Shown: piece by piece, positions 1-27,336 of the stretch
How the letters are laid out: every line of letters starts with the position of its first letter
Numbering within the stretch: the first letter of the stretch is position 1
Source of the DNA: Candidatus Campbellbacteria bacterium
GTDB lineage: Bacteria > Patescibacteriota > Minisyncoccia > Phycocordibacterales > EsbW-18
DNA length: 58,802 bases
Direction: 5' to 3'
Assembly: GCA_045863475.1 (NCBI GenBank)
Contig: BTUR01000005.1
Span: 1-58,802, forward strand
The notes under the pieces: model-generated
The model's database searches: none
The model's input: the letters and a program-made list of their open reading frames with translations, nothing else
What the model was told of the DNA's origin: nothing
Made by a program: the position numbers and the translations under genes

Positions 1-1277
<1,277 letters not shown>

Positions 1278-1319
1278 GGGAATCTGAAAATCGTCACACA
1301 CCTGATTTCTTTATTGCCT

Positions 1320-1366
1320 GTCCCGTTAGAAGTAGGACGCGTGCGTCCGCACCTCTCTAATGGGAC
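1320..1366. repeat. CCCGTTAGA...TCTAAYGGG inverted-repeat element, copy 1
   Basis: Arms GTCCCGTTAGA / TCTAATGGGAC; the same arms recur at 34779-34881. Confidence 0.6.
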
Positions 1367-1396
1367 GCATGAATACTAAAGAGTGAAAAATTTCAC

Positions 1397-1499
1397 GGGG
1401 CCGGGTCTCTCCCCGAAAGGAGAGGGGCACGATGATGCGTGTGCGGCAAGCCGCGCCTCTAGGACGGGTCAAGGGTTCCAAACCCTCCCGGTCCCACCA
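1397..1499 (+). ncRNA. Aberrant tRNA-like element ending in ACCA
   Basis: GGGGCCGGG/CCCGGTCCC acceptor-like stem plus ACCA, and a T-arm-like AGGG-TTCCAAA-CCCT. There is no canonical D arm or anticodon arm. Confidence 0.6.
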
Positions 1500-1509
1500 T
1501 GTAATTCAC

Positions 1510-1658
1510 GGGCCTGTAGCTCAGAGAAGATTGTCCTAATTCGGTTGGTACCGTGGCCTTAAAGTGAGGCCAGGGGTTCGACGCCCCTTCGGACGATCGA
1601 GTAAAGAGCGCCCGGGTTACAACCGGGAGGTCGTGGTTAAAGCCCACCAGGCCCACCA
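1510..1658 (+). tRNA. tRNA-Val(TAC)-like gene with an ~70-nt cloverleaf-like insertion in the D-loop; function uncertain
   Basis: GGGCCTG/CAGGCCC+ACCA acceptor, TAGCTCAG...AGAGC D-stem, anticodon arm CCCGG-GTTACAA-CCGGG, and a deviant T-arm GTGG-TTAAAGC-CCAC. Confidence 0.65.
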
Positions 1659-1688
1659 AACCAAACGATTTCACAACAGTTCTTTCCT

Positions 1689-1714
1689 GCGGATGACGAA
1701 AGGCATCCGCACCA
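1689..1714 (+). ncRNA. tRNA acceptor microhelix (Leu-like stem) ending in ACCA
   Basis: GCGGATG-ACGAAAGG-CATCCGC-ACCA: a perfect 7-bp stem, a discriminator base and CCA. Confidence 0.5.
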
Positions 1715-1744
1715 CTCTTTAGTATTTATGTATGCAGTTGAACG

Positions 1745-2179
1745 TCGAATGCTGTGTTCTGGTTGGTCGAAGGGGTATTCACGAATATTTTTCTGCTGAA
1801 AAATTTCGCGAACCCGCCTCGGCCCGTCGGCCTGCGGCCTTACGAAGCTTTGCTTCTCACCCGTTCCATTCCGAGACAGGAAGCCTGTCCCGCAGTGAAA
1901 TTTGAAAACTAAATAGAAGAGATGAGCATTTTGTTCTGGTGGCTTAACGATGGGGTTACACCCGTTCTCATTCCGAACACGGAAGTTAAGACCATTAGTG
2001 CCGATGGTAGTCCGAAAGGGCGAGAGTAGGTAGCCGCCAGAACAAAGTACTCATCCATATCAAATTTCCACCGCGGGATTAAGACCGCGAGTAGCCTAGG
2101 TAGTTCTGCCCGAGCGAGAGTAGGGCACGTCCAGCACTTAGATTAAGTGCTGGATAAACCGCCAGAACAAAGCATTCGA
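1745..2179 (+). ncRNA. Outer, insertion-interrupted 5S rRNA-like RNA enclosing the intact 5S gene
   Basis: Colinear 5S segments GTTCTGGTTGG..GGGGT / CACCCGTTCCATTCCGAGACAGGAAG / TTAAGACC..GGTAGT..GCGAGAGTAGG / CCGCCAGAACAAAG. The two ends are complementary. Confidence 0.7.
1933..2043 (+). rRNA. rrf: 5S rRNA (intact, inner copy)
   Basis: CACCCGTTCTCATTCCGAACACGGAAGTTAAG, GCCGATGGTAGT and GAGAGTAGG motifs; terminal helix GTTCTGGTGG/CCGCCAGAAC. Confidence 0.95.
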
Positions 2180-27090: not shown

Positions 27091-27177
27091 GGAGAGGTGC
27101 CAGAGTGGTTGAATGGAGCACCCTGCTAAGGTGTTGAGGGGGAAACCCCTCCGAGGGTTCGAATCCCTCCCTCTCCG
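27091..27177 (+). tRNA. tRNA-Ser(GCT)
   Basis: GGAGAGG/CCTCTCC acceptor, anticodon loop CTGCTAA, long variable arm, GGTTCGAATCC and G73. Confidence 0.96.
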
Positions 27178-27336
27178 CACCTGATGCAAGAATACCCCGC
27201 AAGGGGTATTCTTTGCGTCAGGAGGACGCGGATTCGAACGACGGAGTCCCGGCTTGGCCGGGACGAGTCGCGTCCGGCGAATCTTATGAGCGAAGCGAAT
27301 TAGATATCGCGGGACGAATCCCTCCCTCTCCGCACC
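27160..27336 (+). mobile_element. Miniature element bounded by a 22-bp duplication of the tRNA-Ser 3' end
   Basis: CGAATCCCTCCCTCTCCGCACC at 27160-27181 and 27315-27336. Confidence 0.6.

Follow-up and report, generated by a model that had tools for sequence, protein, structure and literature searches.

In bacterial and archaeal ribosomal RNA (rRNA) operons, spacer transfer RNAs (tRNAs) such as tRNA-Ile and tRNA-Ala between the 16S and 23S genes are excised by ribonuclease P (RNase P), and this excision aids the processing of the pre-rRNA. tRNA-like processing signals are represented by the t-elements of plant mitochondria, the mascRNA of MALAT1 and the tRNA punctuation model of mitochondria. 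In transfer-messenger RNA (tmRNA) and YrlA-type RNAs a tRNA-like domain is closed around a large internal insert. Here we describe an element of 149 nucleotides (nt) in the spacer between the 23S and 5S rRNA genes of a Candidatus Campbellbacteria bacterium, in which a cloverleaf-like structure lies inside the D-loop of an outer tRNA-like frame. It occupies positions 1510–1658 of contig BTUR01000005.1 (assembly GCA_045863475.1), and the whole stretch analysed, 58,802 nt, is called the window. We consider, at a probability of roughly 0.55, that the element is a non-decoding, tRNA-derived module of the 23S–5S spacer that is excised by RNase P in rRNA processing and contains a self-folding insert.

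Passages of PMC3790967 and of a mascRNA preprint (10.64898/2026.01.19.700226) deal with tRNA-like processing signals, and parts of PMC3978253 and PMC3728597 describe disrupted tRNA genes of Archaea and of Cyanidioschyzon merolae, in which introns occupy non-canonical positions including the D-loop. A survey of small-genome bacteria reports in its main text inserts of at least 100 base pairs (bp) inside 16S and 23S genes. The main texts, supplements apart, of two papers on the rRNA of the candidate phyla radiation (CPR; PMC11270868, PMC9297842) contain no discussion of spacer tRNAs, and our full-text literature search returned neither a bacterial tRNA with a D-loop insert nor an account of tRNA-like units between 23S and 5S in CPR or small-genome bacteria.

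Fold and conservation of the nested element

The source assembly, designated G000, is 734 kb long in 59 contigs and 98% complete, and the window is its contig C5. Its small size, together with the group I introns and other inserts present in the 23S genes of relatives, points to a bacterium of the CPR/Patescibacteria type. The double cloverleaf drawn over the element has 42 base pairs, all of them standard, with 0 non-pairs. Its energy is −63.6 kcal/mol against −68.3 for the minimum free energy (MFE) fold, and a fold constrained to include it reaches −67.6. The unconstrained MFE structure itself includes the outer acceptor stem, anticodon arm and T arm and the 8-bp inner closing stem, while the D-stem strand GCUC at 1519–1522 pairs there with GAGU at 1599–1602. 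None of 200 shuffled sequences was as stable as the element (z-score of the MFE −4.05), and the same was true of the insert folded alone (z = −4.61, 0 of 200).

The initial annotation had described the outer frame as tRNA-Val(UAC)-like, and this description is borne out: the frame has an acceptor stem of 7 bp with ACCA after it, a D stem, an anticodon arm whose loop is GUUACAA, and a T arm of 4 bp. Its T-loop looks degenerate, as does a C-C mismatch at the T-stem base. The insert had been taken for a second cloverleaf. Its four helices do form, as a four-way junction of an 8-bp closing stem, a 4-bp hairpin with GG in its 4-nt loop, a variable hairpin and a T-arm-like hairpin; the junction spacings, 5/0/0/3 nt as opposed to 2/1/4–5/0 in tRNA, are not those of a tRNA, and we therefore call the insert cloverleaf-like and not a standard tRNA. 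It was correctly noted that the inner T-loop (UUCGACG) is canonical and the outer one (UUAAAGC) is not. The only family-level signal of the insert is a weak one to tRNA-Sec (19.1 bits, E 0.12, cut-off 47 bits).

The same nested architecture is carried by a congener, G013, at L005:1960–2113. It was found among the 23S–5S spacers of the family, for which the 5S gene was located in 15 of 17 genomes and 14 spacers had both anchors; one locus (L018), whose contig begins at the 5S gene, was left out. A covariance model, R1, made from the window copy and the double-cloverleaf structure of the initial annotation, matches the G013 copy over its full length with 67.1 bits (E 2e-13). The Rfam tRNA model RF00005 reads this copy as one tRNA whose D-loop holds an insert of 86 nt, at 41.6 bits, above the gathering cut-off of 29 bits. 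The GG of the 4-bp inner hairpin is present in both species, and the inner T-loop of G013 is UUCAAAU.

In the two-sequence alignment 98.8% of 83 cells are paired, and 13 of the 42 pairs are changed on both sides and still paired. These changes fall in the inner D-like hairpin (3 of 4 pairs), the inner anticodon-like hairpin (5 of 6) and the inner T stem (1), and in the outer anticodon stem (2), acceptor stem (1) and T stem (1). When the partners were slid by 1–3 columns as a control, 30–54% of cells were paired with 0–3 both-side changes. Of the eight helices, RNAalifold finds six again when given a MAFFT alignment made blind to structure: the acceptor stem, D stem, inner closing stem, inner T arm, outer anticodon stem and outer T stem. 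Between the two species the outer frame keeps its acceptor, D and T stems and differs in its anticodon arm. The inner anticodon-like hairpin of G013, with 9 bp and a loop of 6 nt, shows that this loop is not conserved. By this comparison a second species has preserved the nested architecture, with compensatory changes. The covariation in relatives that the initial annotation had proposed to look for is thus present, and its alternative of a private pseudogene is refuted because so many pairs have changed on both sides and remain paired in G013.

The distribution of the nested form is narrow. BLAST of 1480–1690 against 60 relatives gave the self match only, and a 19-base pattern had exact matches only in G000 and G013 among 401 genomes of the order (G000 included), its matches with 3 mismatches being no commoner than those of a reversed-pattern control. 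In the metagenome, genome and viral contig collections the pattern hit 7, 1 and 1 loci, all unrelated AT-rich or coding sequence, and a second degenerate pattern had 0 matches in viral contigs. R1 found only canonical tRNA-Val(tac) and tRNA-Ala(tgc) genes (46–48 bits) in 150 genomes of the order and only plain units in 26 order-level 5S loci. A scan for the combination of acceptor, T arm and NCCA was too strict and missed the window copy itself. Within G000 there is no second copy of the insert. Contigs of runs X3 and X5 are identical to the window over the element. The search of sequencing runs listed no RNA run containing the stretch, and the four runs compared (X3, X5, X6, X10) all consist of contigs of DNA, in X10 probably.

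The outer frame among spacer tRNA-like units

The anticodon stem of the window copy is intact, with 5 bp and a 7-nt loop bearing U33, UAC and A37. ARAGORN makes no call on the intact element, in the window or alone, and none when exactly the 70 nt of the insert are deleted; it calls tRNA-Val(tac) in 4 of 5 variants from which the insert and 2–6 flanking D-loop bases were deleted in silico. The orthologous frame of G013 has a 6-nt anticodon loop, for which ARAGORN prints 'tRNA-???(aa)' with a 2-nt anticodon. Both nested copies lack C56 in the outer T-loop (UUAAAGC, UUAGAAU) and GG in the D-loop remnants. A simple motif test for GG and C56 is passed by all 45 tRNAs of G000, of whose genes only 6 encode CCA. 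A second tRNA-Val(UAC) gene, the existence of which had been named as a check, is present in both genomes: the canonical tRNA-Val(tac) lies at C1:26507–26580 in G000 (70.5 bits) and at 512022 in G013. G000 also has canonical genes for Val(gac) and Val(cac). Because of these canonical copies, the 6-nt loop of G013, the loss of C56 and the lack of an ARAGORN or Rfam call on the window copy, the element is unlikely to be a working tRNA-Val. The tRNA reading of the initial annotation thus survives as architecture; as a working role it is probably wrong for both layers, given the defective G013 loop, the redundancy, the missing tRNA call and the inner anticodon-like hairpin that differs between the two species.

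Some further observations concern the tRNA set of G000. No tRNA-Asn(GTT) is among its 45 ARAGORN tRNAs; G013 has one at 78965, which finds no BLAST match in G000. A weak Rfam tRNA match (34.9 bits) lies on a small contig at C24:839–909, and a tRNA-like stretch with a CUGUUAA loop lies on C54 around 286.

Plain tRNA-like units occur at the same place in relatives, where they score 50–74 bits with the Rfam tRNA model. In alignments by R1, plain spacer tRNAs of 72–78 nt from five relatives (L019, L012, L006, L007, L014) match the outer frame at 33–48 bits and have the insert as a deletion, and the outer halves of the element are closest to these plain units of relatives and not to the tRNA-Val of their own genome. 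On these two grounds we regard the nested form as a tRNA-like unit of the spacer that has gained an insert, and the insert as the derived state. Related plain units carry the anticodons tgt, gat, cat and ctt. The 14 family spacers range from 66 to 705 nt with 0–3 units each, and the number, order and anticodon of units vary between congeners; the nested form is present in 2 of the 14 (G000 and G013) and absent from the closer relatives G002 and G009.

Beyond the family, 13 long spacers were analysed in an order sample of 26 other families. Rfam-scoring tRNA units are present in 10 of these spacers, and in several units the anticodon arm is expanded or aberrant. A defective anticodon, meaning one not of 3 nt or a violation of U33/R37, was found in 10 of 21 ARAGORN-called spacer units versus 0 of 89 ordinary tRNAs of G000 and G013. 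CCA is encoded in 12 of the 21 versus 20 of the 89. The complete genome of G013 has canonical Cys(gca), class-II Leu(caa), Val(tac) and Asn(gtt) genes outside the spacer, so that the 'Cys(gca)' and class-I 'Leu(caa)' within its spacer are extras that duplicate canonical genes. The element lies on the + strand like the 23S and 5S genes, in the position of an rRNA-operon spacer unit. Its outer frame belongs to a family of tRNA-like units, redundant with canonical genes, that occupy the 23S–5S spacer in many genomes of this order.

Several relatives showed units of other kinds. In other families of the order, the spacer units L099:1657–1754 (98 nt) and L098:1243–1352 (110 nt) have a structured expansion in the anticodon arm and not in the D-loop. 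The unit L019:1259–1336 of G012 has a G3:U70 pair together with the anticodon UGU; G3:U70 is the alanine identity element, and this unit, if processed and charged, would be a mistranslating tRNA. Units of 58 bits on the minus strand, L013:2379–2454 (G003) and L008:2514–2588 (G008), which ARAGORN names 'Leu(tag)', lie inside large inserts in the 3' part of 23S of two congeners and may reflect a tRNA-punctuated fragmentation of 23S.

Proposed excision by RNase P and its alternatives

The RNase P RNA of G000 is found at C4:52019–52455 with 83.3 bits (E 2.8e-26), a score below the Rfam gathering score of 100 bits. Its protein RnpA (40.8 bits) and RNase III are also present. Neither RNase E/G nor RNase M5 was found in the 98% complete G000. 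An RNase Z of the TIGR02651 type was likewise not found, from which we draw no conclusion; it may be recorded that 39 of the 45 tRNA genes lack an encoded CCA, yet no RNase Z of that type was found.

We propose the following course of events. On the branch that leads to G000 and G013, a sequence of ~70–75 nt would have lodged in the D-loop of one spacer unit; it is probably descended from a tRNA, as its GG hairpin, variable hairpin and canonical T-arm suggest, and would have been retained since as a self-contained four-helix fold. The operon would be transcribed as a single 23S–spacer–5S precursor. RNase P would take as its substrate the acceptor and T stems of the outer frame together with the encoded ACCA and cut 5' of G1510, and the 3' end would form at or beyond 1658, at or after the encoded CCA. 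Such an excision would part the 23S trailer from the 5S leader and free the 149-nt by-product, and the insert would be tolerated by folding independently and leaving the acceptor/T-stem helix intact. Promoter-like and terminator-like sites in the spacer 1278–1934 are no commoner than in shuffled sequence, and no such signal above chance divides the element from 23S or 5S. We infer the co-transcription, the RNase P cleavage, the 3' end, the benefit to rRNA maturation and the tRNA origin of the insert.

A tRNA origin of the insert is plausible from its motifs, a D-loop-like GUUGGUA and a canonical T arm. Its best local tRNA match is the 15-nt T arm of tRNA-Ala(ggc) with a score of 16, a match that does not identify the donor, and the insert of G013 has no match to the tRNA clan at E ≤ 10. 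Three other identities were rejected. A group I intron does not fit a 70-nt insert, its core being ~200 nt or more, nor a D-loop in place of the anticodon loop, and RF00028 has no match in the window spacer, although the same Rfam searches do pick up such introns in 23S genes of related genomes; the initial annotation had rightly judged the insert too small for one. An archaeal-type intron would require a bulge-helix-bulge; here the two borders of the insert lie opposite one another at the foot of an uninterrupted 8-bp helix, and 3-nt bulges are absent. The splicing endonuclease EndA (PF01974) has 0 matches in G000, with a positive control in 4 archaea. As for tmRNA and the curated tRNA-like families, ARAGORN reports no tmRNA, Rfam gives neither tmRNA nor YrlA for the window copy, and there is no tag open reading frame (ORF). 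The sub-threshold matches of the window copy are to the Tymo tRNA-like family (19.1 bits), tRNA-Sec (19.1 bits) and mascRNA (11.7 bits), and the G013 copy matches permuted tmRNA at chance level (9.7 bits, E 3.9, cut-off 47).

A number of findings weigh against excision of the element by RNase P. The window copy has no RF00005 match at the gathering score of 29 bits nor at E ≤ 10, the outer D-loop remnants AGAGAA and GAGUAAA lack GG, and C56 is gone. Since the elbow of a tRNA is what RNase P of bacteria ordinarily recognises, the altered outer elbow counts against the proposal. Six of the 14 family spacers are 66–166 nt long and hold no tRNA-like unit, so that in close relatives such units are dispensable for 5S maturation; G002, the closest genome by its 23S 3' end (98% identity), has a plain unit and not a nested one. 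Not every spacer unit encodes CCA; in the order sample 4 of 10 do. The covariation comes from two sequences only, in an alignment fitted to R1, and in G013 the double cloverleaf lies 8 kcal/mol above the MFE (−57.3 vs −65.2), which is a different fold. Finally, in a 716-nt contig of run X6 the flanks 1200–1317 and 1667–1754 match the window and 297 other letters stand in place of 1318–1666; the tRNA-like part of the spacer behaves as a replaceable cassette.

The element might instead be a neutral relic, that is, a duplicated spacer tRNA gene that lost decoding, gained an insertion and drifts without any role. This is the strongest of the alternatives, though we regard it as unlikely. It accords with the highly variable spacer content (66–705 nt and 0–3 units in the 14 family spacers), with the substitution of 1318–1666 in the related strain of run X6, with the anticodon that is not conserved and with the degenerate-looking outer T-loop and C-C mismatch at the T-stem base. 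Free drift, however, would break stems, and all eight helices remain paired in two species despite the near-complete sequence change of the inner hairpins, with 13 compensatory pairs and 98.8% of cells paired.

The element may in a bolder proposal, which we hold rather doubtful, be released as a stable small RNA that has its own function. In that case it would belong to a new class of bacterial tRNA mimic, and the wider family of anticodon-defective spacer units would represent an undescribed, RNase-P-based route of rRNA maturation in bacteria without RNase E/G and M5. If so, a second complete elbow, made of the inner T-loop and GG loop, would be grafted on a CCA-ending tRNA frame, and such a molecule might, for instance, occupy two tRNA-binding sites simultaneously or act by titrating an enzyme that handles tRNAs.

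The elbow signals that the outer frame is missing are found in the inner cloverleaf, where a UUCGA or UUCAA T-loop and a GG D-like loop occur in both species. It might accordingly be the inner structure that is the substrate, RNase P and a 3' nuclease excising the ~70-nt 1529–1598 and leaving a split outer frame of two pieces held by the acceptor and D stems. The closing and T stems (8 + 4 = 12 bp) have the length of a tRNA acceptor/T stack, and the weak match of the insert (19.1 bits) is of the tRNA-Sec type. We nevertheless think it improbable, since a 3-nt linker from T stem to closing stem on the 3' strand makes the stack discontinuous, unlike that of a tRNA, no single-stranded NCCA tail follows 1598, the junction spacings are unlike those of tRNA, and the insert of G013 has no tRNA-clan match.

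A mobile cassette, in which spacer units spread by recombination or retro-insertion and the nested form is one unit that landed in another, seems improbable to a like degree; it concerns origin and is compatible with punctuation by RNase P. The differences in unit number, order and anticodon between congeners, the nested form in G000 and G013 and not in the closer G002 and G009, the exchange of 1318–1666 between conserved flanks in the X6 contig, and the GUUGGUA D-loop-like and T-arm motifs of the insert all suit it. Mobility is opposed by the lack of a second insert copy in G000 and of any copy in the other 399 of 401 order genomes (pattern) or in 150 (model) or in the metagenome, genome or viral collections, and no target-site duplication or associated enzyme was identified. 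A working tRNA-Val(UAC) whose D-loop intron is spliced out is hardly credible, for although the anticodon arm of the window copy is intact (5-bp stem, 7-nt loop, U33, UAC, A37), CCA is encoded and ARAGORN calls tRNA-Val(tac) after deletion of the insert in silico, the anticodon loop of the G013 ortholog has 6 nt, a canonical tRNA-Val(tac) is present in each of the two genomes, the insert is not a group I intron and has no bulge-helix-bulge, PF01974 has 0 matches where its control in 4 archaea is positive, and the insert-free molecule would lack G18/G19 in the D-loop and C56 in the T-loop.

The locus and its relation to known systems

The features of the locus are collected in Table 1. The 23S match takes 1277 nt for 993 model positions, which leaves ~280 extra bases in this 3' part, and group I introns occur in the corresponding 23S region of relatives (L006, L007, L094, L099, L114). 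The spacer has no ORF above 71 amino acids, and the only tRNA that ARAGORN calls in the window is a Ser at 27091–27178. The tentative upstream unit (103 nt) has an MFE of −52 kcal/mol and a z-score of −2.44, 4 of 200 shuffles folding equally well, and no homolog of it was established; units of the type closing stem, hairpin and ACCA are also seen in the spacers of relatives (L006, L012, L014, L019). Downstream of the element, the stretch 1779–1846 contains an A/T-rich hairpin and a terminator-like site on the minus strand, and it recurs between tRNA genes at C4:43652–43687 and C1:218364–218430 with 76–89% identity. One contig of run X6 lacks the whole segment 1755–1931.

Table 1. Coordinates of the rRNA genes, the spacer and the parts of the nested element in the window
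Feature	Position	Strand	Evidence and remarks
23S rRNA gene, 3' part	1..1277	+	Rfam RF02541, 875 bits, model positions 1933-2925
23S-5S spacer, 657 nt, contains the element	1278..1934	+	Flanked by Rfam 23S and 5S matches
Second upstream unit, tentative: 9-bp closing stem, T-arm-like hairpin AGGG-UUCCAAA-CCCU, 3' ACCA	1397..1499	+	Folding
Whole nested tRNA-like element, 149 nt	1510..1658	+	Folding; model R1 matches G013 homolog, 67.1 bits
Outer acceptor stem, 5' strand, pairs with 1648-1654	1510..1516	+	7 of 7 pairs standard; pair 3:70 G-C here, A-U in G013
Outer D stem, 5' strand GCUC, pairs with 1606-1609 GAGC	1519..1522	+	Unchanged in both species; recovered by RNAalifold
70-nt D-loop insert, four-helix, cloverleaf-like	1529..1598	+	Closed by 8-bp stem 1529-1536/1591-1598
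Inner D-like hairpin CGGU-UGGU-ACCG, GG in loop	1542..1553	+	3 of 4 pairs compensatory between G000 and G013
Inner anticodon-like hairpin, 6 bp and 7-nt loop	1554..1572	+	5 of 6 pairs compensatory against G013
Inner T-arm-like hairpin GGGG-UUCGACG-CCCC	1573..1587	+	Kept in G013 (T-loop UUCAAAU); recovered by RNAalifold on both alignments
Outer anticodon arm CCCGG-GUUACAA-CCGGG, UAC at 1618-1620	1611..1627	+	2 of 5 stem pairs compensatory against G013
Outer T arm GUGG-UUAAAGC-CCAC, 4 bp, C56 replaced by A	1633..1647	+	Folding and comparison with G013 (T-loop UUAGAAU, also A at 56)
Outer acceptor stem, 3' strand, and encoded ACCA	1648..1658	+	Read from sequence
5S rRNA gene	1935..2042	+	Rfam RF00001, 78.2 bits

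If RNase P excises the units, they would show how 23S and 5S are separated in bacteria without RNase E/G and M5, the usual nucleases of 5S maturation, and excision of the nested form would show what degree of elbow disruption RNase P tolerates. Even as a relic only, the element would still illustrate cleanly how compensatory change can keep a structured insert folded within another structured RNA.

With the spacer tRNAs of rRNA operons the element shares a tRNA-shaped unit in an operon spacer and a genome that encodes both the RNA and the protein of RNase P. Unlike the 16S–23S spacer tRNAs it lies between 23S and 5S, is redundant, has an anticodon that is not conserved and carries a 70-nt insert in its D-loop, and unlike ordinary spacer tRNAs the window copy fails the Rfam tRNA model. 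Like the t-elements and mascRNA, it would be a non-decoding tRNA mimic that keeps the acceptor/T-arm half and marks cleavage within a longer transcript, which is a prediction here. Those mimics are reduced and have arms missing, whereas the bacterial element, with its predicted cleavage, is expanded by a second cloverleaf at the elbow.

An insertion that breaks the D-loop of a tRNA frame is what the element has in common with the disrupted tRNA genes of Archaea and the red alga C. merolae. Their introns have bulge-helix-bulge borders and are removed by EndA, whereas the present element has neither the motif nor an EndA match in its genome, is bacterial and has a frame that is probably not decoding. 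The rRNA-insert survey describes frequent insertions in structured RNA genes of small-genome bacteria, and in the relatives studied here the 23S gene likewise holds group I introns and other inserts; our element differs in lying in a spacer, and 'tRNA' and 'spacer' each have 0 occurrences in the main text of that survey. In tmRNA and YrlA, as here, a frame of acceptor stem, T arm and CCA encloses a large structured insert, which in those RNAs replaces the anticodon arm; the element keeps its anticodon arm and has the insert in the D-loop. Taken together, these comparisons suggest that the element, with two instances only, is a spacer tRNA or tRNA-like processing element of known type whose nested form is new.

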